The notes: generated by a model not told the origin, from the sequence alone. A DNA stretch of 64,000 bases from a virus (IMGVR_UViG_3300031993_000032); one strand, 5' to 3'; shown: positions 8,520 to 61,516, numbered from the stretch's first letter. A program made the numbers and translations.

Positions 8520-8674
8520 TGTTGAACTCCTTGATTGAGGTTTGTATAAATATAATATAACTAAATGACAGTCCCGTGTCAATACTGTCAGTCAAAAAGT
8601 TATATTTTTGGATCGACCGCCGGTTCGGTAGATCCGAGAACAAATAAAAAAGTGCCCCATCTGGGGCACCGTTT

Positions 8675-10866: not shown

Positions 10867-10977
10867 AATAACTCCTTGGTTAAGTCAGAAATAAAATATA
10901 ACATAAAGGCAGTCTCGTGTCAATACTGCCAGTCCGAGCACTATATTTTAAACAAAAAAGGGGCTTTCGCCCCTGGA

Positions 10978-14166: not shown

Positions 14167-14283
14167 AAGTAATTCTCCTTGGTTTGTTCAAAGATAAAAT
14201 ATAACTAAATAACAGTCCCGTGTCAATACTGTCAGTCGATTTAGTTAATTTATAAACACGAAAAGGGGTTTGCGCCCCTAATT

Positions 14284-20073: not shown

Positions 20074-21030
20074 TTATTTTTTGCTAGTGTAGATATAGTT
20101 TGCAGCCTTAATTGCAGCTCGACAAGCTTTTTCTACCATATTCTTATCGCTTCTGAGTGCCCTAGCCCATTCCTTCACGTAGGCTGCGCTCTGTTCGTCG
20201 CACTGTGGAGTATCAAATCCGTTATCGTGCATAATCGCACAAGAGCAAATTTCTGCTATCAATTCCTCGAAAGAATAAGAATTTTTGTCCATACGGTTCG
20301 CCAATTCCCTATTCAGTCGCTTGGAATGTCCAGTGCTATGTGCCAATTCGTGGAATACGTCAGAATAGTAGGCATTAGAATTTTTATAGCTATTCATAGG
20401 CGGTACGTGAATCTTATCCAAACTCGGAGAATATGCTGGAGTAGTATTCACGTGGTCAATGACCATACTCTCACGAGCTTGATAGTCCACAATAATCTTT
20501 TCTGCATCCGCAATCGGATTATTATGGTGTTCCTCGGCCTTTTTCGCAAACTTTAAAGGACAGTCTACCTCTCGGCCTACCTGCCATACAGTAGACGCTT
20601 TCAAGATAGGGAAATGCCCCTTAATAGGTTCACCATTTTCGTCGAGGCGAGGCTTTCCGTCCTCATCCTTCTTTGTGTACTCTACCATACTGTAGAAGTA
20701 CACTCGATGACCCTTGACCACTTTGCCGTTCTCGTCACGCTTGAAAGCTCCCCACACGGAACCATCCTTCACGTTCGTATGGTTGCGTTCGGCTACGCCG
20801 TTCACTGTGACGAACTCGCCTTCGGTGCATCCACCTAAAGCCAGCATCAGCGTGTTAAGGAACGAATATGACTTACCGTCGCTCTTGAGGAATCCGCTTT
20901 CGGTACGGTTCCACTGTTCACGCCACGGAACGCATCCCTTATCCAAACAAGCCAAAAACTTGTCCGTAATGTCCGCCATAATCTCGGCGGATACCTCGCT
21001 TGAGGTCTTTTTTGTTTTCGTGTATGCCAT
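20074..21030 (-). CDS. ardC: ArdC-like antirestriction protein (N-terminal ssDNA-binding domain + C-terminal HExxH zincin)
   Basis: CVPWREQW...SYSFLNTLML in the N-terminal domain. HELAHSTGH...NYI in the C-terminal domain. ACGGAGA RBS. The ORF-track TTG start trimmed to ATG. Confidence 0.7.
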   Translation of the reverse strand: MAYTKTKKTSSEVSAEIMADITDKFLACLDKGCVPWREQWNRTESGFLKSDGKSYSFLNTLMLALGGCTEGEFVTVNGVAERNHTNVKDGSVWGAFKRDENGKVVKGHRVYFYSMVEYTKKDEDGKPRLDENGEPIKGHFPILKASTVWQVGREVDCPLKFAKKAEEHHNNPIADAEKIIVDYQARESMVIDHVNTTPAYSPSLDKIHVPPMNSYKNSNAYYSDVFHELAHSTGHSKRLNRELANRMDKNSYSFEELIAEICSCAIMHDNGFDTPQCDEQSAAYVKEWARALRSDKNMVEKACRAAIKAANYIYTSKK

Positions 21031-21167
21031 AATCAATTCTCCGTTGAGTGGTGTTCCGTAAGCCCCATCGGCTTACATAATCTTAATAATCCCACGAGGC
21101 AGTCCCGTAGGCAGTGTGCCAGTCTGTCGCCGTATACGGCACACAATTGGGGCTTTCGCCCCTTTGT

Positions 21168-23782: not shown

Positions 23783-23876
23783 CCCATGCCCCGATTTTGA
23801 AAAATTTTGCCTGGGGTGCAAAATGGTTCATATATAGGGGAAATTTGCTGTTATTTGGTCATTTTGCTATATTTGG
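23783..23876. repeat. about 75-bp direct repeat copy B, carrying the promoter TTGCTG-N17-TATATT-N9-ATG for gene 23883
   Basis: Read directly from the sequence. Confidence 0.6.
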
Positions 23877-24356: not shown

Positions 24357-25837
24357 TATATAAACTTACTTATGAATTGAAGTTAGTAGGATTTCTTCAG
24401 TTCTAAGAAAGAGTTTAGATGCCCTGAAGACGCTAAATCCTACACTAAGTGTCTTCGGGGCATTTCCTATTATATGATTACGACCGCCCAGAAAATAATG
24501 CTTATCGTAGACAAGAAGACTGCAAGTACGTTGAATCGTGCATGCGGTTGTGCTCGCTACGCATACAACTGGGCTAGGGACACCTGGTTTGCCAAGAAGG
24601 CTGCTGGCCATAAATCGGTGACGTGCGCGGAACTACGCAAAGAGTTCAACGAACAAAAGACTGATTGGATGTACGAGAGTCCCAAAGGCTCTATGGACCA
24701 AGCTATTAAGAACTTCGTTCTCGCCAAGAAACGGCATTACGAGAATCTTGAACTGTTCGGATTTCCCAAGCGTAAGAAATACAAGTCTAAGCGGTCATTC
24801 TACATAGAGAACGACAAGGCGAGGATAGTCGATCCTACTCGTGTCAAGTTGCCGTTAATCAAGCTTCCAGTCAGACTGGCGGAGCCAGTGCGGCTAGAAT
24901 GCCTATCTGGTAAGATAAACAACTTCGTTGTATCTAAGGGAAGCAACGACCGTTGGTACATCTCGATTTCCTATACTTACGATGACACTAATAGTTTGTA
25001 TGGAACTGGTGAGAATGGCCTTGTCGGTATAGACATAGGAGTTAAGACGCTGATGCAGTTATCGACAGGGGAATGCGTCGCCAATGAGCATATCAACAAG
25101 ACGCATTGCAAGCGACTTAGACGATATCAGAGGATGATGTCCCGCCGTAAGTATAATTCTACGCATTACAAGGACATCAAGAAGACTTTCAACAAGCAGA
25201 ATGCTTATATCAAGAACTTCAGAAAGGACTTGATACACAAGGCGACGACAGAGATTGTCAAGCACAATATGGTTGTCGCCATAGAGGACTTGAACGTCAA
25301 GGGAATGATGTCCAATCATAAGTTGGCGTCGGCGATTTCGGACTGCGGATTCGGCATGATCCGTAGGTTCCTTGAATACAAAAGTGCCAAGTACGGAACA
25401 TTACTTTTGAAGGTGAACCGATGGTTCCCATCCAGCAAAACTTGTTCCGGGTGTGGACATACGAAAGAAAAACTTTCATTGTCCGAACGAGAGTTCATCT
25501 GTGAGGAATGCGGACTGGTTATCGACCGAGATACTAACGCCGCAATCAATATCCTTGCAGAAGCCTTGTTCAATGAACTATATAAGAGATTCAATACCGA
25601 CATTGCCCGTCGGAAATTCACGCCAGCGGACTTGGTAGCTCTGGCCTCATCCCTTTCGGGATCTGGTGAACCTACCGAGGTCGATGCTCATTGCTTACTT
25701 ACCAGAGATGGTAGGGCGGCTATGGTGGACGATTTCTTCAATCGTCTATGGAATCAAGTTGCTATCGCAACCGTAAATCGCTATATTTAAGTCATAGACA
25801 ATTCCGTCTATACTTTTATATACATTTTATGAGGCAG
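24357..25837 (+). mobile_element. IS200/IS605-family element carrying only tnpB (copy 1); the left-end hairpin co-varies with copy 3
   Basis: Ends mapped by aligning this copy to the one at 56125-57591. About 90 percent protein identity between the two tnpB genes. Confidence 0.65.
24474..25790 (+). CDS. tnpB: TnpB (OrfB_IS605) RNA-guided nuclease-like protein, 438 aa
   Basis: RuvC motifs and a C-terminal CxxC...CxxC zinc finger (CSGCGH...CEECG...DRDTNAAINI). Confidence 0.85.
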   Translation: MITTAQKIMLIVDKKTASTLNRACGCARYAYNWARDTWFAKKAAGHKSVTCAELRKEFNEQKTDWMYESPKGSMDQAIKNFVLAKKRHYENLELFGFPKRKKYKSKRSFYIENDKARIVDPTRVKLPLIKLPVRLAEPVRLECLSGKINNFVVSKGSNDRWYISISYTYDDTNSLYGTGENGLVGIDIGVKTLMQLSTGECVANEHINKTHCKRLRRYQRMMSRRKYNSTHYKDIKKTFNKQNAYIKNFRKDLIHKATTEIVKHNMVVAIEDLNVKGMMSNHKLASAISDCGFGMIRRFLEYKSAKYGTLLLKVNRWFPSSKTCSGCGHTKEKLSLSEREFICEECGLVIDRDTNAAINILAEALFNELYKRFNTDIARRKFTPADLVALASSLSGSGEPTEVDAHCLLTRDGRAAMVDDFFNRLWNQVAIATVNRYI

Positions 25838-29716: not shown

Positions 29717-29745
29717 AATATAGTAAATAAAACAAACCGTGTCAA
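29717..29745 (-). promoter_or_regulatory. sigma-70-type promoter TTGACA-N17-TATATT
   Basis: Read directly from the sequence. Confidence 0.6.
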
Positions 29746-31664: not shown

Positions 31665-32753
31665 TTATACAAGTTGTGCAGCGAGGTCTCCGAAGGCGTC
31701 AAAGAAACCGTTCGGATAGAATTCGAATTCGCCGTTCTGGTCGATGTTGATTTTCTGGTTACCATACATCATGTAGTAGCCACGGACACCAAGTGTCCGG
31801 ATCTGCAGCTTCACGTCATACAGCGCAGTGATATTCTTGATACAGCCGACATATCGTCCTTGAGGGTCGAACAGATCGACTTGCGGATCGAGGTCGTTGT
31901 GGATGACTATCGGAGAGAACCGATATTCTTCTCGCTTCTTGGGAGTAACTGTATGCTTGCTACGGCGAATGTCATAGATGACCTTCTGGATAGCGATAGG
32001 TGCGGTCGTATATCCATCAAGCAACGTGTGTGACTGTAGATATTCTTGCACCGGCGTAATTGAGTAAGCCAAGCGTTCGTTCATTTCTTCGATAGTCTTG
32101 TCGCTATAGTCGCGTTTCAGACAGTCATGAATCAAGTACCACTCGTCATTGGCATTAGCTCTCCAGAGACAGTCCCTATGGTAGTCCCACAGTGCGTCAT
32201 GGATGTCGCTTCGGATATCTTCCTGGTGTTCTACAAAGCCTACAAAGCAGTCTGAATGCACTTCCGGAAATTCCACGCCGTTTGCGGATCCGGTTCCGTA
32301 CGCAAGACGGTAGTAGACAGTGTCGAATACTCCGTCGGTAATCACTTTCATGATGTCGGAATAAGCCGCATGGAGCATAACACGGAAATAGCACTTGCCA
32401 CCGACATGACGGGTGCATTCAATGTTGTATGCAAAGAAATAAGGCTGGTATTGATCCTTGTCTGTCGGATGGAAATCATGGGAACAGTGGTTTGCCACTG
32501 TAACCTTGATGTCCTTGCATTTCCAGTGTTTCAGCTCGGCGATGATTCTCGGCATGAGCTTCTTGTACGGCTTGACATGCGTATTGACGAGTCGCCATAC
32601 TTCAGCCAGTGCGGGGCCTTCTATACGGGCACCTTGAGCAAGTTCAGTAGCCTTAGCTTCTACTTCGTCAAGTAGTTCCGTCTTGATGCATTCCGGTCGC
32701 TCTGAGGCGATCTGACGCAACTGTCGGAAAAGGTGGGCTACGGTCGTATTCAT
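31665..32753 (-). CDS. hypothetical protein (362 aa) sharing a C-terminal domain of about 90 aa with the 33246..34124 product
   Basis: ORF 31665..32900 (TTG) trimmed to Met50. ATGA overlap with the upstream gene. The paralogous C-terminal stretch is GYY.M..Q.I.ID..G..E.YP..FFD. Confidence 0.5.
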   Translation of the reverse strand: MNTTVAHLFRQLRQIASERPECIKTELLDEVEAKATELAQGARIEGPALAEVWRLVNTHVKPYKKLMPRIIAELKHWKCKDIKVTVANHCSHDFHPTDKDQYQPYFFAYNIECTRHVGGKCYFRVMLHAAYSDIMKVITDGVFDTVYYRLAYGTGSANGVEFPEVHSDCFVGFVEHQEDIRSDIHDALWDYHRDCLWRANANDEWYLIHDCLKRDYSDKTIEEMNERLAYSITPVQEYLQSHTLLDGYTTAPIAIQKVIYDIRRSKHTVTPKKREEYRFSPIVIHNDLDPQVDLFDPQGRYVGCIKNITALYDVKLQIRTLGVRGYYMMYGNQKINIDQNGEFEFYPNGFFDAFGDLAAQLV

Positions 32754-33268
32754 TTGTGCATTTCCTTGTCGGCGTAGTCCTTGAGGGCTTCGTTCTGAAC
32801 GTTCCTCAATCGGCGAGTGATTGAACTCACAGCGCTCTCGATCATGGAGCTCGCCTTCCTTGCGGTAATCACCTTGGCACGCATGATGTCGCCAACGCAA
32901 TGATTATCCATGTCCTTCTTGCTTGTGAAGCGGATTGTTTGAACGGTATCGTTATAATCATCGCCTTTCTTGGCATGACCCATATAGACGAGTCGAGAGA
33001 ACTGCAGAAAGTACCTATTATTGCCGTCCCATTTTTTTGCACCGACGACTTTTCCGAGACGGAAATAGTTATCTCCGTCGATTTCGTCGCAAGGATCCCA
33101 GCCAGGGATAACGACCCACTTGTCCATGATACGGCGGAGCTTTCCGTTGATGTCGGCCAGCATCACTCGGTCACGGATTTTATTTTGTTCGTCATACAAC
33201 TTGTCGATGGTCGTCTCGATTTCTTCGAGCCTATTCAAATCTTCTTCATGCGTTGTATTCGTCATCAT
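32750..33268 (-). CDS. hypothetical protein (172 aa)
   Basis: ORF track. AGAGG RBS. Confidence 0.55.
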   Translation of the reverse strand: MMTNTTHEEDLNRLEEIETTIDKLYDEQNKIRDRVMLADINGKLRRIMDKWVVIPGWDPCDEIDGDNYFRLGKVVGAKKWDGNNRYFLQFSRLVYMGHAKKGDDYNDTVQTIRFTSKKDMDNHCVGDIMRAKVITARKASSMIESAVSSITRRLRNVQNEALKDYADKEMHK

Positions 33269-34124
33269 TTACCTCTGGGTTGATTGGTTGCGGATAGATT
33301 TCTGCGAGTTTCGATTGGAATAGTGACTGGACTTCGGTATCGGTGGACAGCAAGTCGCCAGCTGCAGTGATAACGGTATCAAAGAAATTTATCGGATATT
33401 CTTCGATATTTCCGTAGCGGTCGATATCGATGCGCTGCCCGTCGAACATGAAGTAGTAGCCAGCCAAACGCTGCAGACCGATCTGCCTACGGACATCCTC
33501 GAATGCCGTGTCGTTCTTGACTTCGCCTACCTTGAATCCGTCCGGATTGTACAAGGTTGTTGGCTTGTCGAGGTCATTACGCACAATGACCTTCATCCTT
33601 GCCGGATTGATGAACTTGATACGGTCAAGGTCGATCTCGTGCTCTACGGTGTCGTCGATCAGTACGTTAAACTTGTTGGTATCGTCGACACCCCACTTCC
33701 ATACAGTAGGCTTGTTCAGCCCATACGAACCGAATCCGCCTGGTTGCAGCAACGTATCTCGGTCGAACGCAAAATCAGAACACTGGCCGATCAACGTGTC
33801 GACCGCATCTTCCTTGACGAAGATAGTGCCACGGTGCTCCTTGTCGACCCCAATCCTCTTGTACAAGTTATCTACAAGCCCAAGCTCGATTTCGGAACGG
33901 TGTACCCATCCCCAAGTATAGATATTCACCTTGTAATGGTGTCCGTCGTGCTTGTGGATATATTCCTTGATATTATCACATTGGTGGTTCAGAAAATTCG
34001 CATTGAACAAGTCGTCAATAAGCGTTCCCTCGATATCTACATAGATCTCGATATCGGCTTCCTTCTTGCGTTTCATTGGAGTCGTATTGATTACTGGTTC
34101 TTCGTGATGTACAGGATAAGTCAT
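33246..34124 (-). CDS. hypothetical protein with a weak HAD-like N-terminal motif (VDIEGTL) and the C-terminal domain shared with 31665..32753
   Basis: ORF trimmed to Met26, which sits 6 nt after the TATATT of promoter 34131-34159. Confidence 0.5.
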   Translation of the reverse strand: MTYPVHHEEPVINTTPMKRKKEADIEIYVDIEGTLIDDLFNANFLNHQCDNIKEYIHKHDGHHYKVNIYTWGWVHRSEIELGLVDNLYKRIGVDKEHRGTIFVKEDAVDTLIGQCSDFAFDRDTLLQPGGFGSYGLNKPTVWKWGVDDTNKFNVLIDDTVEHEIDLDRIKFINPARMKVIVRNDLDKPTTLYNPDGFKVGEVKNDTAFEDVRRQIGLQRLAGYYFMFDGQRIDIDRYGNIEEYPINFFDTVITAAGDLLSTDTEVQSLFQSKLAEIYPQPINPEVNDDEYNA

Positions 34125-34130
34125 GTACAA

Positions 34131-34159
34131 AATATAGTAAATACTCTGATGAGTGTCAA
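34131..34159 (-). promoter_or_regulatory. sigma-70-type promoter TTGACA-N17-TATATT with the ATG 6 nt downstream (leaderless)
   Basis: Read directly from the sequence. Confidence 0.6.
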
Positions 34160-34222
34160 CGCAGAAAGGCCAGCCTTGCGGCTGGCCTTGTTGTATCAAC
34201 AGAGGTAAATTTTAACGAACTA

Positions 34223-35848
34223 TTATTCCCAAGGGAGCTTGCGGTCAGACTTCGGCTGAGCCTTCTTGACGTTGTTTACAACGGTCTTGAGCTGTTCAGC
34301 GGTCATCTTGGGTGCAGCCTTCGGTTCTTCGGCCTTGGGAGCTTCGGCAGCCTTCGGTGCTTCGTTCACGACAGTACACTGGCACGGTTCTGCCTTGTTG
34401 GAACCTACTCCAGCAAGCTTGGCACCGAACATGGAGCTGAGCACGTTCGGAAGATTGATGCCAAGGGATTCGGTGAGACCGTTGGACATCTTGGTAAGAG
34501 TGCTGATAAGGTTGCCAGTGAGATTTTCTGGGCCGTGTTCGCCATACATGACGAGGCTTCCGATCTTTTCCCACGGCTTGGCGAGAGATTCTGCCATGTG
34601 CGGCAACTGTTCGAAGTACTTTTCGAGAGCCTTGAGCTGCATTTCTTGACGAGCAGCTTCGCCGTACTTCTGCATTGCTTCTGCCTTCTGGTCGAGGGCA
34701 GCGGCTTCTGCAAGACCCTTTGCCTTGATGGCATCAGCCTCAGCTTCACCACGAGCACGGATAGCTTCAGCGTCGTTGAATGCACGAGTCTTTTCGGCTT
34801 CGGAAATCTGCTTGATGGCTTCTGCTTCTTGAGTCTTTGCGAAGAGCTTTGCTTCGGCATCCTTGTTCTGGCGGTAGAGGTCAGCTTCAGAGTTCTGGAT
34901 CTGGGCTTGACGGTTAGCTTCGGCCTTCTTCTGGATTTCAGCTTCGAGTTCTTTCTGCTTCACAGTGACCATGCGTTCACGGATTTCGGCTTCCTTTTCT
35001 TGGCGAGCGCATTCCGCTTCTGCAGCCTTGATATTAATGGTCTTCTGCTGTTCTTGCTTCTGGATTTCGTATGCGGCGTCTGCTTCGGCCTTTTTGGTGT
35101 CGGCTTGACGCTTAAGGTCAGCCTTCTTCACTTCGAGGTCATTCTGCTTCTGGGCGATTTCGAGGTCAGCAGCGACCTTAGCATCGTTGGCTTCCTTTGC
35201 AGCCTTGGATTCGGCGATGCTAATATCACGGTCGGAATTAGCTTTAGAGATCGCCGCAGCCTTACGAATAGCGGATGTCTTGTCTACACCGAGGTCTTTG
35301 ATGACGCCCTTGTCGTCAACAAAGTTCTGGATGTTGAAAGTCTGGATTTCCAAGCCGAGTTTCTTGAGGTCTGGGTCAGCATTTTCACGAACGAGATCAG
35401 ACACACCCTTACGGTCATTGACAAGCTTGACGAGTTCCATCTGGCCGACAATTTCACGCATGTTGCCTTCCAGGATGTCCTTGATGTTGCTTGCAATGTT
35501 TTCTGTAGAGTTATTCAAGAAGTTCTGGGCAGATGCTTCCAAAAGTTTTTCATCATCAGACACCTTCACTGTCACGACGGCATCGACGTCAACGTTGATG
35601 TAGTCGCTTGTCGGAATTGCCTTGGTCTTCACGTCGATGGGGAAGAGCTTCAAGCTAAGCTTGTCGGCTCGTTCCAAGAACGGAATCTTGAATCCGGCAT
35701 GGCCGATGACGGTGCGGCGCTTGCGGAAACCGGAAATGATGATGACTTCGTCGGGTGCGGCCTTGATATAGGACACGCAGAAGAGGATAATGAGGAAGAG
35801 CACGACGACTGCAATTCCACCATAGAGCAGAATACTGGAAAGATCCAT
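34223..35848 (-). CDS. flotillin-like SPFH/band-7 protein (N-terminal TM, SPFH domain, long EA/KA-rich coiled-coil)
   Basis: Domain architecture recognised by eye. AAGGAAA RBS. Confidence 0.75.
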   Translation of the reverse strand: MDLSSILLYGGIAVVVLFLIILFCVSYIKAAPDEVIIISGFRKRRTVIGHAGFKIPFLERADKLSLKLFPIDVKTKAIPTSDYINVDVDAVVTVKVSDDEKLLEASAQNFLNNSTENIASNIKDILEGNMREIVGQMELVKLVNDRKGVSDLVRENADPDLKKLGLEIQTFNIQNFVDDKGVIKDLGVDKTSAIRKAAAISKANSDRDISIAESKAAKEANDAKVAADLEIAQKQNDLEVKKADLKRQADTKKAEADAAYEIQKQEQQKTINIKAAEAECARQEKEAEIRERMVTVKQKELEAEIQKKAEANRQAQIQNSEADLYRQNKDAEAKLFAKTQEAEAIKQISEAEKTRAFNDAEAIRARGEAEADAIKAKGLAEAAALDQKAEAMQKYGEAARQEMQLKALEKYFEQLPHMAESLAKPWEKIGSLVMYGEHGPENLTGNLISTLTKMSNGLTESLGINLPNVLSSMFGAKLAGVGSNKAEPCQCTVVNEAPKAAEAPKAEEPKAAPKMTAEQLKTVVNNVKKAQPKSDRKLPWE

Positions 35849-35863
35849 GTTACTGTTTCCTTG

Positions 35864-36274
35864 TTATTGTTGATTGTTTCTGATGTCTACATCGCCAGAC
35901 ACGGTACTCACCGATCCAGCGACGCTACCTCTGACATCGACATCCCCAGAGACTGCGGATACCGAGCCACTTACATCGCCGTGGATTTCGATGTCGCCAG
36001 ACGTCGTACTGACGTTGCCGACATTTCCGTTCACGACAATGTTCGGAAGATTTTGTACGGACTTGAGATTGCCAACGATGTTGATCCCAGCGATACGGCT
36101 ACCGCATTCGATGCGCTGACCGCCGATGATCACCACATTGTCCGATTCTAATGTGATATCACCTTGTACGTGGAAATCTTCGGAATCGTTCACGGAGACC
36201 ATTACGTTTCCGTTGGCGTCCTTGAGCGTGACGGAACTTTTACCGTCAAGTCCTTTTGCAATTTGTACATTCAT
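35864..36274 (-). CDS. bactofilin-like (DUF583-type beta-helical GxV repeat) protein
   Basis: Repeats GDVSGSVSAVSGDVDVRGSVAGSV. TAATG overlap with the upstream gene. Confidence 0.55.
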   Translation of the reverse strand: MNVQIAKGLDGKSSVTLKDANGNVMVSVNDSEDFHVQGDITLESDNVVIIGGQRIECGSRIAGINIVGNLKSVQNLPNIVVNGNVGNVSTTSGDIEIHGDVSGSVSAVSGDVDVRGSVAGSVSTVSGDVDIRNNQQ

Positions 36275-37065
36275 TACCAGTCCCTCACTGAACCGTTAAG
36301 CCATTCATTTGGCGCAACTACGAAGAATACTACTGCGATGATAATAATTAACGAGAAGCATATCCAGAAATACAGTACGCCATGTTCTCTGATGTAGTAA
36401 TCGATCGCACCGTCAAGTGGAACTCCGTCCGCCCACATCGAATCGTTGATTCGGTGGTTGACCGCATTCGTGTACATCGTTCCGGTGTAAGTCAAGTTAC
36501 GACCGTAGTACACGTAGCGTTGGCGATTCGACATCAATGCGTCCCATAGCCCAGTCTTCTTGATGGGAATCGTTTCGATATAATGTTCCCTAGGCAACGC
36601 AGGGAATTCCGAATAATAGAACCGCTTGCCAAGGAAGTCCACATGGTTGACACTGAAATGGTCAGTCTTCATGACGTCCCACGTCCAGTATGTCTCCGTA
36701 TGGCAATGACGGTTCTTTCCCTCGCCAGAGCAGACAGTACGATGGTGCTTTCTGTATTCCTCCAAGTCACGAGTAAGTGTCATGTAGTGTCCGATACCGT
36801 CGTCGGTAACGAACTCGACTGCGCTTACAGTTCCATATGCCAGCATGTGGCCAGCATCTGTTTTGAAGGCATAGTTAAATTGCGTTGAGTCGGAGACATG
36901 TACTGCGTGATAGAACTTCACGTTGTACTCGTCCTGGGCTTGTGCGATTTTGTTGGCAATGATGCAGCCCAAGATAATGGCCAGCAACACGCCGACAAGC
37001 GACACGAAAAACTCACGGACGGTCAGATCCCAGCTACCGCCATCAAATAGCGTACGAGAACTCAT
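36274..37065 (-). CDS. membrane protein (N- and C-terminal TM, Cys-containing extracytoplasmic domain), LemA partner
   Basis: ORF track. TAATG coupling to lemA. Confidence 0.55.
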   Translation of the reverse strand: MSSRTLFDGGSWDLTVREFFVSLVGVLLAIILGCIIANKIAQAQDEYNVKFYHAVHVSDSTQFNYAFKTDAGHMLAYGTVSAVEFVTDDGIGHYMTLTRDLEEYRKHHRTVCSGEGKNRHCHTETYWTWDVMKTDHFSVNHVDFLGKRFYYSEFPALPREHYIETIPIKKTGLWDALMSNRQRYVYYGRNLTYTGTMYTNAVNHRINDSMWADGVPLDGAIDYYIREHGVLYFWICFSLIIIIAVVFFVVAPNEWLNGSVRDW

Positions 37066-37640
37066 TAGTCTTTCTGATCCTTTTTCTTCTTCAAGAGACC
37101 AGTAGGCGCATCAACCGGAGCATTTGCAAACTCCAAGAAGTCGTATTTCTGTGCAACGTAGCCAAGGATAGACAAGCAGAAACGAGCCGGGAATCCACGC
37201 ACGTAAGCATTGTAGTTGCCTACCATGGTGTTGTAGTCGTTTCTGTGCGAAGCGATACGATTTTCGGTCATGGCGAGTTCCGTCATGTACCGGTCGTAAT
37301 TCTCGATAGAACGGAGCTGCGGATAGCGTTCGACCACGCCCTGGATGTATGCGGACGCATTCACGTTGCCCTTGCCGCCTTCCGGTGTACGAGCCTTGGA
37401 GAGTTCGACGATCACTTGCGCTTCGTGCTCGTCATAGCTCATGACAGCTTCGGCCAAGTTGACCAAGAGTCCGGCACGGCGGTTGTATTCCGCATTGAGG
37501 TTGGAATTAGCACGTTCGACGAGCTGTTCCATCTGGATAGCACGGTTCTGGTAGTTCTGCACCATGAAGATGGATGCGACGATAGTGAGTGCAATGACGA
37601 CGACAAATCCGATTGCGCCGAGGATGATTGCTTTTGCCAT
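37065..37640 (-). CDS. lemA: LemA-family protein
   Basis: N-terminal TM, then YN..A..L.......VIVELSKARTPEGG.....TENRIA..R.DYN....YN...R.FP. AAAGGAAAA RBS. Confidence 0.75.
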   Translation of the reverse strand: MAKAIILGAIGFVVVIALTIVASIFMVQNYQNRAIQMEQLVERANSNLNAEYNRRAGLLVNLAEAVMSYDEHEAQVIVELSKARTPEGGKGNVNASAYIQGVVERYPQLRSIENYDRYMTELAMTENRIASHRNDYNTMVGNYNAYVRGFPARFCLSILGYVAQKYDFLEFANAPVDAPTGLLKKKKDQKD

Positions 37641-37658
37641 TTTGTTTTCCTTTGTTGA

Positions 37659-38915
37659 TTATTTGACAGTTTCAATTTTGTAAATAAGTGTGCTGTTACC
37701 CATCTTGATTTCAAGATGGTTAGGGAATGCCGCAGCAATCTTTGCGTATTCAGCTTCCAAGAGTTCGCTGGCCTTGATGCCGAATTCCTTGCCTTGAGCA
37801 ATCCCCATTGACTGCACGGTATCATTGATAGCCTTGCGGTCTGGTTCATTATCCTTCAGATAGCAAGCAGCCGGAAGCTGTTCCAGCCAAGCCCTTTCGC
37901 AATAATAGTCTCTCATGAGAGCAAGCAACAGCTCATACTCACCAGAAACGAAGTTCACCAGAGACGTCCAGTACTTGCCATCGTCCGGATTCCACGCATA
38001 CACGTTACCGTATGAACGGAGCCAGTTCCACAGCTTTCGTTCATCACGTGTAGGAACAAACGCTTCCAGATTGATTTCACTGGCAGCAGTGAAGCAGATT
38101 GCCGGGAACAAGTTATCCTTGGTCAGCAATTCGTCGCATTCGATCAGCTGACACTTGACTTCGTACGGATCCAGACCGTCAAATCCTTCGATATGCCGAA
38201 GCAAGCCGTTCCAAATCAACCTATCAATGAAGTCCGGAGTATCGGCATAGTCCTTCAGTTTCAAGAATTCGGCACGGATACGTTCATTTGACACGTTTTC
38301 CAGTCGTTCTGCATTTGCACTCATGGCGCATGCAGTCTTGTTTTCAATGCTATATTCGAAGTTCACGGCGAAACGAGCGCCACGGATCATGCGGAGCGCA
38401 TCTTCTTCGAATCGCTTGTCAGGATCGCCGACAGCACGGATAATCTTGTTCTTGATATCTTCGACACCGCCATGGTAGTCGATAATTTCGCCGTCCCACG
38501 CAAGGCCGAGCGCATTGATGGTAAAGTCACGTCGAGCTGTATCTTCTTCGAAAGACTCGGTAAGCGTAATAGAGTCTGGATGACGACCGTCGCTGTATTC
38601 ACCGTCAGTACGGAAATGGGTAACCTCGAAATAGATGCCATCCCACCAGACAAGAATGGTGCCGTGTTTTTCGCCGTTGTTGTCGCATGTCTTGAAGTAT
38701 GTCTTCAAGTTATCAAGCGGCATTGACGTGGCGATATCGATGTCATGGATATCCAGCTCGTCGGTCTGGCCGAGCTGGTAACGAACAATGTCACGGACAC
38801 AGCCGCCCACGAGATAAGCCTCAGACTTGTAGGGGCCCAACTCGGTAATCTTCTTGGCTAATGCCAGACCAGCCTTCAACTGATCGTTGTTAATGTCATC
38901 CAAATTGATTTTCAT
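37659..38915 (-). CDS. cca: tRNA nucleotidyltransferase (CCA-adding enzyme / poly(A) polymerase family, head+neck only, no HD domain)
   Basis: GGCVRD, DIHDIDIAT, TARRDFTINAL and FEEDALRMIRGARFA motifs. Leaderless promoter 38923-38951. Confidence 0.8.
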   Translation of the reverse strand: MKINLDDINNDQLKAGLALAKKITELGPYKSEAYLVGGCVRDIVRYQLGQTDELDIHDIDIATSMPLDNLKTYFKTCDNNGEKHGTILVWWDGIYFEVTHFRTDGEYSDGRHPDSITLTESFEEDTARRDFTINALGLAWDGEIIDYHGGVEDIKNKIIRAVGDPDKRFEEDALRMIRGARFAVNFEYSIENKTACAMSANAERLENVSNERIRAEFLKLKDYADTPDFIDRLIWNGLLRHIEGFDGLDPYEVKCQLIECDELLTKDNLFPAICFTAASEINLEAFVPTRDERKLWNWLRSYGNVYAWNPDDGKYWTSLVNFVSGEYELLLALMRDYYCERAWLEQLPAACYLKDNEPDRKAINDTVQSMGIAQGKEFGIKASELLEAEYAKIAAAFPNHLEIKMGNSTLIYKIETVK

Positions 38916-38922
38916 GTTTTAG

Positions 38923-38951
38923 AATATAGTAATAACACTCATATCCGTCAA
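38923..38951 (-). promoter_or_regulatory. sigma-70-type promoter TTGACG-N17-TATATT with the ATG 7 nt downstream
   Basis: Read directly from the sequence. Confidence 0.6.
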
Positions 38952-38986
38952 GCGACTTTTGATATAATTTATTAAATATGCGAGAA

Positions 38987-39163
38987 AAAATCTACATGGC
39001 AATCTACATAGCGTTCGTCGTAGGCGCTTGCCATCACGTGTACGCAATAATGAAGATCCGCTGGAAGGCGGCACTCACTCGCATGCAAAGGGGAATTACT
39101 CCCGCAGTTGGATACATCCTTGAAGCGATACACAAGTGGTTGAATTCAAAATAATGGAAAAGG
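38987..39163 (+). CDS. small 58-aa hydrophobic ORF from a divergent extended -10 promoter (TGATATAAT)
   Basis: Not in the ORF track. No SD. Near-leaderless. Confidence 0.25.
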
Positions 39164-39180
39164 CTGGTCAATGACCAGCC
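39150..39180. terminator. bidirectional terminator GGCTGGTCAATGACCAGCC
   Basis: Read directly from the sequence. Confidence 0.55.
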
Positions 39181-39185
39181 TTTCG

Positions 39186-39794
39186 TTAACCGTTGCGTTC
39201 CGTCGGATCAACACCGGGAACCGGACACAGCGAACCAGGGATAGTGTGCCAAGTTCCGTGCTGGATGCCGTCGGCGACAACGGTAAACTTTTCAGTCGGC
39301 TTGTTCTCGTTCGATACGAGGAACTCCAACTTACCGTCAACGTTCTTGACGTCGAAGATACGGTAATGAGCGTTGCCACGGATAGTACGGTTCAGCGGCG
39401 ACGCCTTGATGATAAAGGTCTTCTTGTTACGGTAACGGATGAACAGCGACGAACCGTGATGTAGTCCGATGAGGTAGTCTTCATCTTCGGATTCGCTTGC
39501 CTTTGCGTCGTCCTTTTCGATTTCCTTGATACCGTTAGCCAGAGATACATGAAGCTGGTTATCGTTCGGATCCACATAGCCAAAAGTAATCTTGTGCGGA
39601 TTTTCCGTAGACACATAGATACCGACTACGGTCACTTCGGTAGGTTCCGGATATGAATAGAACGTACCGTACAAGCGATACTTGAGTTCCTTCGAGCCCT
39701 TCGTTGCAGCTATGTCAAGAGTGTACTTATGGGCAACACCATGCACCGGGCATTCGATGTGCGGCAAGTCGATAGTTTGTGCTAAATTAATCAT
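39186..39794 (-). CDS. hypothetical protein (202 aa)
   Basis: ORF 39186..39884 trimmed to Met31 (ATGA overlap with the HD gene). Terminator at 39150-39180. Confidence 0.5.
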   Translation of the reverse strand: MINLAQTIDLPHIECPVHGVAHKYTLDIAATKGSKELKYRLYGTFYSYPEPTEVTVVGIYVSTENPHKITFGYVDPNDNQLHVSLANGIKEIEKDDAKASESEDEDYLIGLHHGSSLFIRYRNKKTFIIKASPLNRTIRGNAHYRIFDVKNVDGKLEFLVSNENKPTEKFTVVADGIQHGTWHTIPGSLCPVPGVDPTERNG

Positions 39795-40573
39795 ATGGAA
39801 CCTTTGTCCTTCATGCACCTCAGTGCAGCTTTTAGAATTGAGTCTTTCTTGAGACAGCCGCCGTTGATCTGAATCTTGTGGCAAGTCTCATACAGTTCAA
39901 ACTTCTTGTTGGCGTCAGCGATTTTCTCGACTTCCGGATTAGCAATCATGTCGTTCCATGTCACCAGATGGCTAGGCATCGGATGCGACATGCAGTAGAC
40001 CACGATAGGGTTAGAATTAATCTCTTCCATGTAGTCCATCGCCGGATTGCCTTCGGCATCGATGGTGCTGTTGGAATCAGCGACGGCAAGCTTGAACACA
40101 CGGTTGATCCACGGGTGCGACACGAATGACCAGCAAGCGAACTTCTGTTTCGCTTTCGGCAAGGCGTTCGCTTGCGTATGGTTCTCTACCATCCACAGCA
40201 CGATATCCTTTTCGTGCTTCTTGAATCCGAAACTGTCAAGTACAGCTTCGGCAAGCGGCAATCCGAGCTTTTCGTGACCGGCCATGTTCTTGCCGTTGTT
40301 CTTCGCTAGCGCATCCTTCTTGCCGATATCGTGCAGCAGAGCCGCAGTGACATCCAAGTAGTCGTGCTTGTCCTTGAGGATATTCTCGATGACCATCTTG
40401 GTATGAACCCACACGTCACCTTCATGGTGATAATTAACGTGTTCGCATCCGGCCATGTACTGATCGATGAAACCGAACAGAGGATTATACTTCCGTTCAC
40501 ATTCCAGCCGATCCACCACATCTGGTGCGGTCAATATGCTATGCACATTATTGTAGGTTTCCTCGATCGTCAT
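39791..40573 (-). CDS. HD-domain phosphohydrolase
   Basis: H..HHEGDVWVHT...LLHDIGK motif. AAGAGGA RBS. Confidence 0.7.
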   Translation of the reverse strand: MTIEETYNNVHSILTAPDVVDRLECERKYNPLFGFIDQYMAGCEHVNYHHEGDVWVHTKMVIENILKDKHDYLDVTAALLHDIGKKDALAKNNGKNMAGHEKLGLPLAEAVLDSFGFKKHEKDIVLWMVENHTQANALPKAKQKFACWSFVSHPWINRVFKLAVADSNSTIDAEGNPAMDYMEEINSNPIVVYCMSHPMPSHLVTWNDMIANPEVEKIADANKKFELYETCHKIQINGGCLKKDSILKAALRCMKDKGSI

Positions 40574-40868: not shown

Positions 40869-42215
40869 ATGGCAGTCAAAGTCTCCGAAAAAACGATTGC
40901 GAGGGCAAAGCAGCCTTGTCGCACCGTTTGCAAGCGTCGTGCTGTCGGCGTAACGGCAAACAAGCAGTATCAGCGCAAGAACAAAGACCAGTGGTTCGTC
41001 ACGCATCTCACCAAGACCGATACTTACAAGTTCGGCATGTGTCAAGCGGTCTTCCACAAGCATCCGAACGAACGTGCCTACTGGGAATTCAAGCTCCGTT
41101 CTGATGGCGTCGACCTGACTCCGTACTACGACGAAATCAACAAGGAACTCGATCACCTTTGCACACTCAAGTTTACTGAATGGGAACTCGAAGGCATTCG
41201 CCGTGTTATGCCTTGGCTGTCCGACGACTTCATCGAATGGCTTGCCGACTTCCAGCTCAAGCGCAAGTACATCCACGTCGACTATGATGCTACTCGCAAC
41301 GGCGGTCTCCACATCTGGGCTGAAGGCCCCGCAATCCAAGTTACCTGGTTTGAAATCTATGTTCTGAAGATTATCCAGAACCTCTTCTTCGACGATCTCG
41401 AAATCGACTGGGAAGAATCCAAGAAGACACTCAACGAATCTATCGCAAAGTGGAACGCAGCTCTCCGCCGTGGCGTCAAGTTCACGATCTCTGACTTCGG
41501 TGTCCGCCGTTCCGTGTCCGACGAATGGAACGAATACATGGTTCAGACCATGATCGACTTCTGCCCCGCTTTTGTGGGCACTTCCAACGTGTACCTTGCC
41601 ATCAAGCTAGGCTGCAAGGCTATTGGTACTTTTGCCCATGAAATGTACGCACTGTATCAAGGCATTGACGACATTCCGCTTCACCTTGTGCAGAAGAAAG
41701 TTCTCGAAGACTGGTCTGACGAATTCCGTGGCGACCTCGGTATTGCGCTTTCCGACAACTTTGGCTTCAATGCATTCTTGCGTGATTTCGATAAGTATTA
41801 CGCCAAGCTGTTCGACGGTTGCCGTCACGACTCTGGCGACCCGTATGTCTGGGGCGAAATGCTTATCGCTCACTACACCAAGAACGGCATCAATTCCAAG
41901 AGCAAGGTAGGCTGCTGGTCTGACAGCCTCAACTGCGACCAGTCCATCGCTATCGCCGAACGCTTCCACACTCGTATCAACGTGGCATTCGGTATCGGCG
42001 GCTTCCTCGCTTGCAAGGTGCTCCGCTTCAAGGGTGGCATCAAGCGTGACGCTCTCCGCATGATCATGAAGCTTGTCATGTCCAACGGCAAGTACGCCGT
42101 GAAGCTCTCCGACTCTCCGGGCAAGGTCAACTGTCCTGACCCGAAGGTGATTGAACGTGCGAAGGACGCATACCATTACGAACCAATTGCAGAAAACAAG
42201 GACGCTTTGGATTAA
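40869..42215 (+). CDS. pncB: nicotinate phosphoribosyltransferase
   Basis: Collinear matches to PncB: DTYKFGMCQAVFH, FGVRRSVS...FVGTSNVYLA, GIALSDNFGFNAFLRDF, CRHDSGDPYVWGE, VKLSDSPGKVNCPD. Trimmed to Met22 after AAGGA. Confidence 0.85.
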   Translation: MAVKVSEKTIARAKQPCRTVCKRRAVGVTANKQYQRKNKDQWFVTHLTKTDTYKFGMCQAVFHKHPNERAYWEFKLRSDGVDLTPYYDEINKELDHLCTLKFTEWELEGIRRVMPWLSDDFIEWLADFQLKRKYIHVDYDATRNGGLHIWAEGPAIQVTWFEIYVLKIIQNLFFDDLEIDWEESKKTLNESIAKWNAALRRGVKFTISDFGVRRSVSDEWNEYMVQTMIDFCPAFVGTSNVYLAIKLGCKAIGTFAHEMYALYQGIDDIPLHLVQKKVLEDWSDEFRGDLGIALSDNFGFNAFLRDFDKYYAKLFDGCRHDSGDPYVWGEMLIAHYTKNGINSKSKVGCWSDSLNCDQSIAIAERFHTRINVAFGIGGFLACKVLRFKGGIKRDALRMIMKLVMSNGKYAVKLSDSPGKVNCPDPKVIERAKDAYHYEPIAENKDALD

Positions 42216-42217: not shown

Positions 42218-42862
42218 ATGAAAGTACTCGAACTATTTGCTGGCGAACGTTGCATTGGCAAGGCATTTGAACGTGCTGGCCATGAGGTATATTCAGTAGA
42301 CTGGGACAAAATCCATCCAAATATCGACTGGTATACAGATATTTCTAAAGTGACTGCTCAAGATATCCTTGAACGGTTTGGGCATCCGGACGTTATTTGG
42401 ATGAGTCCGGATTGCACAACGTATTCAGTCGCCGCAATTTCTTATCATCGAACCAATGTAAATGGCGAATTGCAGCCAAAAACTGAATATGCAAAATTTT
42501 GTGATGCACTTAATGTGCATTGTAATGAACTGATTAAAGAGTTAAGTCCATCGTTATGGTTTAGGGAAAATCCACGAGGTGGCATGCGCAAAATGTCATT
42601 TGTTGCTGGATTGCCTAGATATACCGTAACATACTGTCAATACGGCGATACGAGGCAAAAGCCAACAGACATTTGGACCAACCATCCGAATCCTAATTTT
42701 TTGCCACCATGTAAACCGGGTTCACCTTGCCATGAAGCGGCCCCTCGTGGCAGCCGTACCGGTACTCAAGGACGTGCTGGCCATGTTATGCGGTCATTAA
42801 TTCCAGATAATCTATGCGATCATATCGTCAAAATTTGTGAAGAATATATGGGTGTCAAATGA
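42218..42862 (+). CDS. minimal C5-cytosine-methyltransferase-like protein (214 aa; motifs I LELFAG, IV SPDC, VI FRENP; no obvious TRD)
   Basis: Motif order read by eye. Sits between pncB and nadD. Confidence 0.4.
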   Translation: MKVLELFAGERCIGKAFERAGHEVYSVDWDKIHPNIDWYTDISKVTAQDILERFGHPDVIWMSPDCTTYSVAAISYHRTNVNGELQPKTEYAKFCDALNVHCNELIKELSPSLWFRENPRGGMRKMSFVAGLPRYTVTYCQYGDTRQKPTDIWTNHPNPNFLPPCKPGSPCHEAAPRGSRTGTQGRAGHVMRSLIPDNLCDHIVKICEEYMGVK

Positions 42863-43284
42863 AGAAGGTGTACATCTACGGCGGAGCATTCGACCCGGTA
42901 ACGACTGCGCACACCGCCATTATTACCGAACTGCTCAGCCGACTCAAGAAGGAACCTGATTCCCTCTTGTACATCTTGGTTAGTGACAACGATACGAAGA
43001 ATTACAAGGTCGAATGCGAAGACCGCATGGCGATGATCGTCCATACGGTCAATTCGCTCCACAGCTTGTATTCTGACACGTCCGATTCTCCGGCTGCATA
43101 CAATCAAGGCGAACCGTCCGAAATCTTCCACCGTGTGAAGATTGTCGACGAAGTGAGCCGTACAGCTGAAGCCCTGCAGAATCTCCGCAAGGATACCAGC
43201 TTGACTGATGCTACATTCACGCTGGTTCTCGGCACTGACGAATGGCAGTCGCTGTTGACCAAACAATGGGCTGTTAACAGCTAA
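42859..43284 (+). CDS. nadD: NadD-like nicotinate/nicotinamide mononucleotide adenylyltransferase, short (141 aa; lacks the C-terminal third of canonical NadD)
   Basis: GGAFDPVTTAH nucleotidyltransferase motif. LVLGTDEWQSL block. ATGA overlap with the upstream gene. Confidence 0.55.
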   Translation: MKKVYIYGGAFDPVTTAHTAIITELLSRLKKEPDSLLYILVSDNDTKNYKVECEDRMAMIVHTVNSLHSLYSDTSDSPAAYNQGEPSEIFHRVKIVDEVSRTAEALQNLRKDTSLTDATFTLVLGTDEWQSLLTKQWAVNS

Positions 43285-43439: not shown

Positions 43440-45260
43440 AGAAAACATTTATGATGGCTCGTTTGGAGTTGAATTGCACAATAAATTCCGAACGAGCCAT
43501 GTCTGTATTGTATGAGTAAGCACTGTTGGACATTGAAGGATAGGTACGAGTCGCATTTCTCCGCTGCGTTCTATCCTATGTATTTGTCCGACACCAAGCG
43601 TGCCGAAATCATCCATCGTGCCGAGGAAATCCGTTCTGTACGGAACGATATATCCGACGTGTTCTTCTCTGATATGCTCGGCTTCCAAGACATGAGCAAG
43701 TTTGATGCATACAAGTATTTCATTCCCATATTTAATACAAGACTATGTAGTCATTACTTGAAGACGGCAATCGAGGATGTGTGGAAGGCATACCAGTTAA
43801 GATTTGGTGCCATCCGAAAGAAGATTGAGTTCGTCAAGGTAGAAGAGCTTGTGCCGTCCTTCTACAAGATCAATTCTTATGGGCATAAAAAGGGCGAACT
43901 AAAATCCATAGAACGGCATACCAAGAAGACTGAACTATCGAAAGTACTGACCTGGCTTTCCAGATATGGAAAGGACGAATCCGTTTACTGGCTAGAATCC
44001 GTTATTCCTAATGCAGAAGAAACCAAGCAAAAGTTTTACCGCACTATACTGGATAAGATAAGGAAGTTCGGATTCGACCGCCTCATGCGGTTGGCCTTAT
44101 TCCGTAGGAAAGCTGTATATGCGAAGTATATCGCACGAGGGAAGATTACCTTTGAATCTCTCACATTCTCTGGCCGCAGTCGTATTAAGCGTCCTATCGT
44201 GGATGCCAGAAGGAACGATACCGGCAAGTTCGACTACTTCATCGAGATTTCTTGGGACTGGTTCAACCGGGCATACCATGGGCCTAGTGATCATACGCTG
44301 TGCATCCCGATCAAGTACAACAAGGCATATCACAAATCATTACAAAGATACTGCAATGGACCGGATACGTCCTATACAATCGTAATTCGCGGCAAAGACA
44401 TCCACGTAGTTCTTGCCCGTGACGGCTACCGTTACAAGAGCGATGAAAAAATTACCGAGGAGAATACGGTTGGTATAGACGTCAATTCCAAGCACAATAT
44501 GTTCGCCTTGAGTAACGGGGAGTTCATTCCGCATGACGAGGAAATGATTGCTGAACTAGAAGACGAACTGCTGAAAATTGATACCAAGCAGAAGAACTAC
44601 GATGCTAGGTTCAATGACGCTGAGGAGCATGACGCATTCAAGATTTCACGTAAGGACAAGAAACGAATAGAAGCAATCACAGTGAAGCTGAACGCATCCA
44701 ACAAGCGTAGAATAGCTGCAATGTGCAAGGATCTTGCTGAACGTGGATTCAAGCACATCGTGATGGAGAACCTTACCGGGTTTCAAGGAAGCAAACTCAA
44801 TGCCGATGACAAGAAAGGATTTAACCTCGGTAGGTTGCATCTACGTATAGGATTGTCCTCGTTAAAAGACGATGTAGAACATATATCGGCACATTATGGA
44901 CTGGGATTTTCACTCGTCCAGCCAGAATATACCTCGAAGATGTGCCCGGAATGCGGTGGAATAGATGACCGTAACCGTCAGACTCAGGAAGATTTCAAGT
45001 GTGTGTACTGCTTGCATACAGACAATGCAGACCACAACAGTGCGATTAACATCAAGTTCCGCCTTACCTCGACCGTGTTAAGAGGGAACTTGCTCGAAAG
45101 GGTAGGGGATAGCGGATATAGGTACTTTCAGCCAAAGAGCTTGTTCAGGTGGCAAGTAAGGAAGTGCCTAGAAAAATGTCGTTGCAATGGTCTGTTCAAA
45201 CGGACTATAGGAAATCACGAAAGACTTACCATAAGTAAGTTTGAGTAGATTTCAGTCAAC
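43440..45260 (+). mobile_element. second, distinct IS605-family tnpB element (approximate ends); left-end inverted repeat ATGGCTCGTT/AACGAGCCAT at 43452-43500
   Basis: TnpB ORF plus the left-end hairpin. The right end must lie within a few nt of the tnpB stop, because pncA homology resumes at about 45265. Confidence 0.45.
43512..45248 (+). CDS. tnpB: large TnpB-like protein (578 aa; RuvC-I VGIDVN, RuvC-II MENL, RuvC-III NADHNSAINI, zinc finger CPECGG...CVYC)
   Basis: Motifs read by eye. Confidence 0.8.
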   Translation: MSKHCWTLKDRYESHFSAAFYPMYLSDTKRAEIIHRAEEIRSVRNDISDVFFSDMLGFQDMSKFDAYKYFIPIFNTRLCSHYLKTAIEDVWKAYQLRFGAIRKKIEFVKVEELVPSFYKINSYGHKKGELKSIERHTKKTELSKVLTWLSRYGKDESVYWLESVIPNAEETKQKFYRTILDKIRKFGFDRLMRLALFRRKAVYAKYIARGKITFESLTFSGRSRIKRPIVDARRNDTGKFDYFIEISWDWFNRAYHGPSDHTLCIPIKYNKAYHKSLQRYCNGPDTSYTIVIRGKDIHVVLARDGYRYKSDEKITEENTVGIDVNSKHNMFALSNGEFIPHDEEMIAELEDELLKIDTKQKNYDARFNDAEEHDAFKISRKDKKRIEAITVKLNASNKRRIAAMCKDLAERGFKHIVMENLTGFQGSKLNADDKKGFNLGRLHLRIGLSSLKDDVEHISAHYGLGFSLVQPEYTSKMCPECGGIDDRNRQTQEDFKCVYCLHTDNADHNSAINIKFRLTSTVLRGNLLERVGDSGYRYFQPKSLFRWQVRKCLEKCRCNGLFKRTIGNHERLTISKFE

Positions 45261-45264
45261 GGCG

Positions 45265-45543
45265 AAGTACTTCCTCAGCGACGACGCTTTCAACGCCGAT
45301 GGTTCTCTCAAGAGCCAGGAAGAGCTCGCAAAGCTCGGCAAGGAACGCATTGGCCGTATCCGCCTCGTTGGTACTTGCACCGACATCTGCGTCATTTCCA
45401 ACGCAATGATCCTCCGTGCGATGTTCAAGGATACTCCTATCGAAATCGTGGAATACGCTTGTGCCGCTACTCCTGGAGCACAGGATGCAGCAATCCTCGT
45501 CATGGAACGTTGCGGATTCACGATTATCCGTGAAGCTGCCTAA
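45265..45543 (+). pseudogene. pncA: C-terminal fragment (about 90 aa) of a nicotinamidase/isochorismatase (PncA-like), 5'-truncated at the tnpB element
   Basis: RIRLVGTCTDICVISNA...VEYACAA matches the PncA catalytic-Cys region. The ORF begins inside the tnpB 3' end. No N-terminal half was found anywhere upstream. Confidence 0.5.
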
Positions 45544-50570: not shown

Positions 50571-50609
50571 AATGTACCAAATATAGGAATTTAACTCTAT
50601 GTGTCAAGA

Positions 50610-61487: not shown

Positions 61488-61516
61488 AATATAGTAAACA
61501 ATGCTTTAAACGGCAA
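61488..61516 (-). promoter_or_regulatory. sigma-70-type promoter TTGCCG-N17-TATATT, leaderless
   Basis: Read directly from the sequence. Confidence 0.55.

Follow-up and report, generated by a model that had tools for sequence, protein, structure and literature searches.

Why should a phage place a transfer RNA (tRNA) repair enzyme and a series of membrane-type proteins behind a single promoter? The question is raised by five consecutive open reading frames (ORFs) that form one compact unit on the minus strand (34223-38915) of the viral stretch IMGVR_UViG_3300031993_000032, all 64,000 nucleotides (nt) of which are referred to here as the window. From the promoter onward, the unit encodes a CCA-adding-type tRNA nucleotidyltransferase (gene 1), a LemA protein (gene 2), the conserved partner of this LemA (gene 3), a small beta-helix protein (gene 4), and a flotillin (gene 5), and we hold both these identities and the operon layout with high confidence (Table 1). 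Comparison of gene neighborhoods across phages indicates that the conserved unit is the pair formed by LemA and gene 3, a near-invariant cassette that is common in phages.

We collected 122 loci (numbered here with the prefix L), searched their ORFs with the window proteins, and defined lineages as clusters at 80% gene 3 identity. Gene 3 was found in 99 loci, representing 27 lineages, and LemA lies directly 5' of it in 26 of these, in agreement with an earlier reading of the sequence alone (the original prediction), in which this gene was described as encoding a LemA partner; the three loci without a LemA ORF comprise two contig ends and one locus with only a LemA remnant. The cassette is matched by 459 stretches in IMG/VR, is no less common in ordinary phages of 30-60 kb, and in temperate phages falls within a lytic-direction block ahead of the late activator and terminase. 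It also occurs in cultured phages, including Enterococcus phages of ~150 kb (EFDG1, and EA1 gp122-123), Lysinibacillus phage LC76P1, and Latilactobacillus phage TMW 1.46 P1, and ORF23 (LemA) and ORF24 of the Lactococcus garvieae prophage PLg-TB25 are the same pair (PMC5431838). In the cultured phages the same two families (phrog_1383 and phrog_3886) stand in the same order, abutting or overlapping, with LemA 38-42% and gene 3 27-32% identical to the window proteins, but unlike the window these loci hold no flotillin, beta-helix, or CCA gene. Their annotations vary, from "virion structural protein" and "putative repressor" to "RING-type E3 ubiquitin transferase" and "transmembrane protein 43." The membrane set had originally been put forward as an undescribed phage module; LemA and its partner prove to be present already in PHROGs and, without a reported function, in cultured phages. 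In a group of nine loci (on contigs of ~170-216 kb) that includes L088, LemA appears split, and the gene upstream of it (L088 5724-6857) resembles adenylosuccinate synthetase, with a GDEGKG motif recognized by eye; this gene could encode an enzyme of the PurZ type, as in phages whose adenine is modified.

The remaining genes of the operon are far more restricted in their association with this pair. Only in related rumen phage clades, one of which is the window's own, is gene 3 followed by a flotillin; a second rumen clade carries LemA, gene 3, and flotillin without gene 4 or a CCA gene, its flotillin and LemA being 66-67% and its gene 3 46% identical to those of the window. Flotillin-bearing relatives lie on viral contigs of 250-415 kb, and among phage isolate genomes a flotillin is present in nine of 50,697 records, one of them annotated as such. 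Only the window's clade has gene 4 within the unit, and with it the five genes in their full order, and the idea that all five genes constitute a conserved phage module is thus not upheld.

Gene 2 matches the LemA family PF04011 (4e-23; 82.4 bits against a gathering cut-off of 26.2), the solved LemA structure PDB 2ETD (9e-19), and phrog_1383 (6e-31), confirming its first assignment, and hydropathy analysis places a single hydrophobic, predicted transmembrane segment at residues 4-22. The usual partner of bacterial LemA is a TPM-domain protein; Pfam found no TPM match among the LemA neighbors in the window, where the partner is a member of phrog_3886. This partner, gene 3 (phrog_3886 at 2e-42), has two predicted hydrophobic segments and belongs to no Pfam family, nor does any Pfam domain occur on its 120 homologues among the matches listed, in a family for which a profile search returned 762 cluster representatives. 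In its structural model (pLDDT 71), two membrane helices flank a beta-rich domain, and structure comparison found no counterpart among solved structures. As a side observation, Foldseek comparison with viral predicted structures matched the gene 3 model to ORFans of the giant eukaryotic viruses Satyrvirus, Klosneuvirus, Tupanvirus, and Hyperionvirus (E 4e-9 to 9e-4, TM-scores 0.25-0.47), suggesting that the helix-beta domain-helix fold may extend beyond phages. Kinship of gene 3 with GIDE/MUL1, hinted at by the "RING-type E3" annotations, could not be established: PF12483 matches one of 40 diverse family members (E 0.029), and the helix-beta domain-helix layout is the sole likeness.

Gene 5 was originally called a flotillin/SPFH protein, and the family matches agree. 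It matches Band_7 PF01145 across residues 30-205 (2e-22; 80.5 bits against a cut-off of 23.6), Flot PF15975 (1e-9; 38.6 bits against 27), and human flotillin-1 and flotillin-2 (7e-49 and 1e-43), and the NCBIfam FloT model (NF058507) aligns over positions 6-475 of 477 at 6e-70, though with a score far under the equivalog cut-off (236.7 vs 700 bits). By these comparisons gene 5 encodes a true flotillin that is not a FloT ortholog. An N-terminal anchor (a hydrophobic segment at residues 6-24 with a mean hydropathy of 3.0) leads into the SPFH domain, which is followed by the flotillin domain, a coiled coil rich in Ala/Glu/Lys, and then by a tail rich in Pro/Lys/Ala; residues 241-420 are 60-65% Ala/Glu/Lys/Gln. 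A 538-aa ORF (34535-36151, plus strand) runs antisense to the flotillin gene; family matches all fall on the minus strand, and we take it to be a codon-bias shadow of the Ala/Glu-rich coiled coil and not a gene.

For gene 4, the first description as bactofilin-like is supported in part. The structural model is a compact right-handed beta-helix, with the N-terminus MNVQIAKGLDGK as a low-confidence region, and matches bactofilin and DUF4097-type folds about equally; the sequence repeats every ~17 residues (GSVSxVSGDVDV). The protein itself has no Pfam family, with no match to the bactofilin family PF04519 at E<=1 and none to PF13349 (DUF4097/Toastrack), and comparison of the family profile with PDB found no bactofilin by sequence. 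Its homologues match both families: 14 of 48 match PF04519, weakly (best 1.8e-4), and 12 of 48 match PF13349 (best 1.9e-21), a domain that precomputed tables also place on two of the homologues. The model thus identifies gene 4 as a small beta-helix protein that is not separable between bactofilin and Toastrack/DUF4097. Relatives of gene 4 sit in unrelated phage contexts in the three distant homologues examined. Two relatives show a loose recurrence: one (L004 14312-14713) lies within 4-6 kb of a stand-alone flotillin and another (L061 3579-3902) within 4-6 kb of a CCA-LemA-partner set.

The CCA-adding nucleotidyltransferase call for gene 1 held up equally well. The protein matches the PolyA_pol head domain PF01743 (1e-29), PF12627 (6e-9), phrog_2244 (1e-50), and the CCA-adding enzymes of PDB entries 6ibp (5e-48) and 1miv (7e-42), and its translation contains GGCVRD, ARRDF, and EEDALR, corresponding to the motifs GGxVRD, RRD, and EDxxR. 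The NCBIfam CCA model PRK13299 (NF009814) aligns at full length (4e-69), with a score below the equivalog cut-off (233.6 vs 290 bits), and hydropathy analysis revealed no membrane segment. On sequence grounds, we place gene 1 among the CCA-adding-type class II tRNA nucleotidyltransferases, with CCA addition as its predicted activity. Upstream lies a separate HD-domain gene (PF01966 at 2e-5; phrog_2244 at 7e-6 over its C-terminal part; NCBIfam PRK10885, model positions 206-318, at 6e-8) that is similar to the HD phosphohydrolase portion of multifunctional CCA addition/repair enzymes; it is a likely functional partner of gene 1.

A CCA gene stands next to the LemA-gene 3 pair in only two lineages, the window's clade and a distant gut-phage lineage (L045/L061) whose gene 3 proteins are 33% identical to those of the window. 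In both, an 18-nt gap separates CCA from LemA, and the sequences of these junctions are unrelated. In the gut-phage lineage, an RlaP RNA-repair nucleotidyltransferase and a CCA-HD fusion form a two-gene cassette ahead of LemA-gene 3 (L045/L061 4991-7400), and this cassette is absent at the same position in the close relative L048. Because it is present or absent among such close relatives, the CCA gene most likely represents a separate function, a movable neighbor of the membrane pair that groups functionally with RNA-repair genes. A five-part module tied to tRNA repair finds no backing in these comparisons.

Direct reading of the sequence reproduced the five-gene layout of the original prediction and all of its junction values, which differ only in the order of listing: TAA, 18 nt, and ATG between genes 1 and 2, TAATG with a 1-nt overlap between genes 2 and 3 and again between genes 3 and 4, and TAA, 15 nt, and ATG between genes 4 and 5. 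The single TTGACG-N17-TATATT promoter ahead of the operon was also found as described, and its -35 and flank are conserved in the relatives L005 and L119 (~80% identical). Because the -10 ends only 7 nt ahead of its ATG, the gene 1 mRNA, from its predicted start site, is probably leaderless; no purine-rich Shine-Dalgarno sequence could be read between the -10 and this ATG, and genes 2 and 5 are preceded by AGGA-type purine-rich sequences. Hairpins bound the unit on both sides and are retained in L005 and L119, where the upstream stem is preserved through changes on both arms. The downstream hairpin (enclosing fold -22.3 kcal/mol, z -4.9) has a weak U-tract and was not picked up by a consensus terminator scan. 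As a signal scan found no strong promoter or terminator inside the five-gene unit, these signals make a single transcript across all five genes a well-supported expectation.

The promoter pattern itself, generalized to TTG-N20-TATATT, occurs 15 times in the window, compared to 0.59 expected by chance. At about five other sites a start codon lies 6-9 nt past the -10, as at gene 1, so that leaderless transcripts look like a habit of this genome and not a peculiarity of the operon; sites with this short spacing are found at 34131-34159, 61488-61516, and 50580-50607 (-) and at 23845-23873 (+), and the promoter beginning at 34159 (-) serves the gene next after the operon. A longer conserved element, TTGACACGGGACTG...TTATATT, is shared by the sites at 5594-5622, 8554-8582, 10895-10923, and 14198-14226 (all -) and at 29717-29745, a distinct subclass among the 15 that may be a type of promoter specific to the phage, carrying an extra signal upstream or in the spacer. 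Two of the 15 sites are probably not promoters: two TnpB genes (24474-25790 and 56160-57482) each carry at the 3' end one of these near-identical copies of TTGCTA.CGCAACCGTAAAT.GCTATATT, at 25759-25787 (+) and 56163-56191 (-), which more likely belong to a transposon end or a guide RNA. A divergent 58-aa ORF (38978-39154, +), with a hydrophobic N-terminal half and 65% protein identity in L005, L118, and L119, separates the upstream terminator from the operon promoter, and a TGnTATAAT element ends 9 nt ahead of its ATG.

The contig of this uncultured rumen phage recurs in JGI sample 3300028832 and two ENA assemblies, and its relatives in IMG/VR are viral contigs 215-415 kb long. Near-identical contigs have been binned into Fibrobacter, Prevotella, and Clostridia rumen metagenome-assembled genomes; as these bins contradict each other, we claim no host. 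Nucleotide-level matches to phage records are essentially absent (one, of 116 nt), and viral origin is based on the IMG/VR classification of related contigs together with PHROG matches. The 20 longest other ORFs of the window match three TnpB, UDP-galactopyranose mutase, nicotinate phosphoribosyltransferase (NAPRTase), and one anti-restriction family. With its many ORFans, three TnpB, nicotinamide adenine dinucleotide (NAD) salvage genes, and anti-restriction family, the window has the profile of an accessory region in a very large phage, and the NAD salvage set may act as an NAD-restoring counter-defense. The two genes after the operon (33246-34124 and 31665-32900, both -) share with L001 12949-14184 a common C-terminal domain (...GYY.M..GQ.I.ID..G..E.YPN.FFD), defining a small paralogous family without database annotation.

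Table 1. Coordinates of the operon, its bounding signals, and other features of the window.
Feature	Position	Strand	Remarks
Gene 5, FloT-like flotillin	34223..35848	-	541 aa
Gene 4, small soluble right-handed beta-helix protein	35864..36274	-	136 aa
Gene 3, conserved LemA partner	36274..37065	-	263 aa; predicted helix, beta-rich domain, helix
Gene 2, LemA family	37065..37640	-	191 aa; N-terminal hydrophobic segment and helical-bundle domain
Gene 1, class II tRNA nucleotidyltransferase, CCA-adding type	37659..38915	-	418 aa; without HD domain
Sigma-70-type promoter TTGACG-N17-TATATT	38923..38951	-	-10 end to gene 1 ATG, 7 nt
Terminator-like hairpin AGGCCAGCC-GCAA-GGCTGGCCT, then TTTCT	34165..34188	-	Ends unit; 9-bp stem
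Upstream hairpin terminator	39158..39184	-	-18.9 kcal/mol, z -5.6; closes preceding gene, insulates operon
Separate HD-domain gene	39791..40573	-	260 aa; earlier transcript than operon
NAPRTase	40869-42215	+	4e-55
Cytidylyltransferase-like; NMN/NaMN adenylyltransferase (NMNAT-like) candidate	42859-43284	+	Weak precomputed match
Third, longer TnpB-like gene	43512-45248		Between second and third NAD salvage genes
Short isochorismatase-like; nicotinamidase candidate	45241-45543	+	Weak precomputed match
Anti-restriction family gene phrog_7245	20074-21036	-	3e-45; a further counter-defense gene

What, then, might the operon do? We propose that genes 2-5 protect or stabilize the host membrane as a counter-defense. 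Gene 1 and the separate HD gene would restore damaged tRNA 3' ends, as an independent cassette sharing the promoter. Because their reading frames overlap, LemA and gene 3 are probably produced in a constant ratio, and in the cytoplasmic membrane of the host they probably assemble into a single complex. The flotillin, gained in this lineage, could build an oligomeric cage over a membrane patch, by analogy with solved SPFH assemblies, and the gained beta-helix protein could serve as a sub-membrane adaptor or short polymer. Made along with the nucleotide, NAD, and tRNA salvage genes, this membrane set would stabilize or reorganize the host membrane, keeping the cell intact and energized through a long infection and countering membrane-damaging abortive-infection effectors or premature lysis.

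The neighborhoods of the pair lend some support to the counter-defense idea. In Enterococcus phage EA1 it lies beside NAD salvage genes, as in the window, with NMNAT and PnuC as its neighbors, in L045 RNA-repair genes adjoin it, and in 28 gut-phage loci it is directly followed by a family whose representative (L073 8760-10052) carries, after an N-terminal HAD-like segment, a domain matching the type I Thoeris inhibitor Tad3 (7e-34), an inhibitor of ThsB (PMC13402655). Other neighbors include a helicase, a single-stranded DNA-binding protein, and a methylase, genes of the early or middle class; lysis and structural genes are not among them. Toastrack and Band-7/flotillin domains recur in bacterial membrane-stress systems (PMC11237479), and MamQ, the only LemA relative tied to a cellular process, is needed for magnetosome membrane formation (PMC4902198). 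Taken as a whole, with the identities, the layout, and the protective role together, we put the proposal forward tentatively, as possible but short of an even chance.

Several observations weigh against it. Accessory regions hold many unrelated genes, which makes guilt by association a weak argument, and some 18 other viral flotillins (40-68% identical) stand alone among unrelated neighbors; together with the unrelated contexts of the gene 4 family, this means that joint action of the four proteins does not follow. In PHROGs, the LemA family phrog_1383 carries the label "virion structural protein," which would point elsewhere if true, and the literature disputes which way LemA is oriented in the membrane (PMC3905215). 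No phage hallmark gene was found with Pfam and PHROGs among the 20 longest other ORFs of the window, PADLOC returned only noise (E2 at 0.009, Cas10 HD at 6e-4), and our literature search found no functional study of a phage LemA, flotillin, or SPFH protein.

These same points invite the view that the genes have no joint function and are independently acquired accessory genes that share a promoter owing to genome compactness: each element occurs without the others, LemA-gene 3 being mostly without flotillin, the presence of CCA varies among close relatives, and the five-gene order is confined to one clade. We find this doubtful: the linkage of LemA to gene 3 holds almost everywhere, flotillin keeps its place next to this pair even where gene 3 identity has dropped to 46%, the TAATG overlaps point to coupled translation of genes 2 and 3 and of genes 3 and 4, and all four downstream products are of membrane or membrane-proximal types. 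A membrane role could also take the form of superinfection exclusion, in which an altered inner membrane would keep out the DNA of later-arriving phages. Known exclusion proteins are likewise small inner-membrane proteins, and the membrane proteins considered here are encoded by lytic and temperate phages alike among their early or middle genes, yet they show no similarity to known exclusion proteins, one weak SieB Pfam match (E 0.19, in two of 19 members) being noise in our view, and the pair in temperate phages does not occupy a lysogenic-conversion position but the lytic-direction block, leaving exclusion unlikely.

Alternatively, a MamQ-like LemA, the flotillin, and the beta-helix protein might remodel membrane for the phage's own use, building an invagination, vesicle, or microdomain for replication or assembly in very large phages. 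MamQ offers a precedent (gene 2 matches the NCBIfam MamQ model at 1e-16), gene 5 matches solved SPFH proteins in PDB, and the size of the flotillin-bearing contigs fits; solved SPFH proteins form membrane-enclosing cages. Against this stand the equal frequency of LemA-gene 3 in ordinary small phages and the lack of lipid-metabolism or other compartment genes seen nearby, and we judge such remodeling quite improbable. The recurrence of CCA directly upstream, at the same 18-nt gap, in two such divergent lineages would suggest that tRNA repair and the membrane set are functionally tied, for instance through a repair site anchored at the membrane or a shared response to one defense system. With the RlaP-CCA cassette behaving as an insertion or deletion between close relatives, most lineages lacking CCA, unrelated junctions, and a CCA enzyme without a membrane segment, such a tie appears highly improbable. 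A bolder form of our own proposal is that LemA and gene 3 are a widespread, unrecognized phage device acting on the host membrane, with flotillin and the beta-helix protein as an upgrade in very large rumen phages; such a device would neutralize membrane-disrupting immune effectors or, MamQ-like, reshape the membrane into a virus-built domain. This we consider decidedly unlikely.

Phage counter-measures mostly act on nucleic acids, signaling molecules, or NAD; many bacterial defense effectors kill by membrane damage, and protection or reshaping of membranes by phages is little known. The two-gene membrane cassette, present in IMG/VR contigs and in several cultured phages, often lies beside anti-defense and salvage genes, and phage flotillins would be a novel instance of a membrane-organizing scaffold that a virus provides. 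Should the genes be unrelated in function, the result is a cleaner annotation of the accessory region. The families themselves are known; what is new here is an unstudied LemA-partner cassette, common in phages, that is extended by a rare phage flotillin.

Comparison with known systems places each part of the operon beside a bacterial counterpart. Gene 1 shares its head motifs and a full-length match with Bacillus-type class II CCA enzymes; E. coli Cca, to whose HD half the nearby HD gene is akin, carries the HD domain itself, whereas in the window it is split off onto its own gene and transcript. Gene 2 resembles MamQ in its LemA fold and N-terminal membrane helix but falls far below the NCBIfam MamQ cut-off (61 vs 250 bits), and no other magnetosome genes are present. 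In bacterial flotillin operons, such as B. subtilis floT/yuaG with yuaF and E. coli yqiK with yqiJ, an anchored SPFH domain is likewise followed by a coiled-coil flotillin domain; the window gene is phage-encoded, its partners are LemA, gene 3, and the beta-helix protein, and no NfeD/YqiJ-type match (NfeD family, E<=0.01) was found in the seven flanking genes scanned. The unit also differs from Psp/Lia-type envelope-stress systems, which have PspA, PspC, LiaF, or a regulator that it lacks and of which LemA is not a part (PMC11237479 makes no mention of it), and the Toastrack call for gene 4 is itself ambiguous. The likeness to these systems lies in the combination of an SPFH/flotillin protein and small membrane proteins with a beta-helical (Toastrack-like) domain beneath the membrane, for which the role proposed in bacteria is the assembly of complexes at the stressed membrane (PMC11237479).

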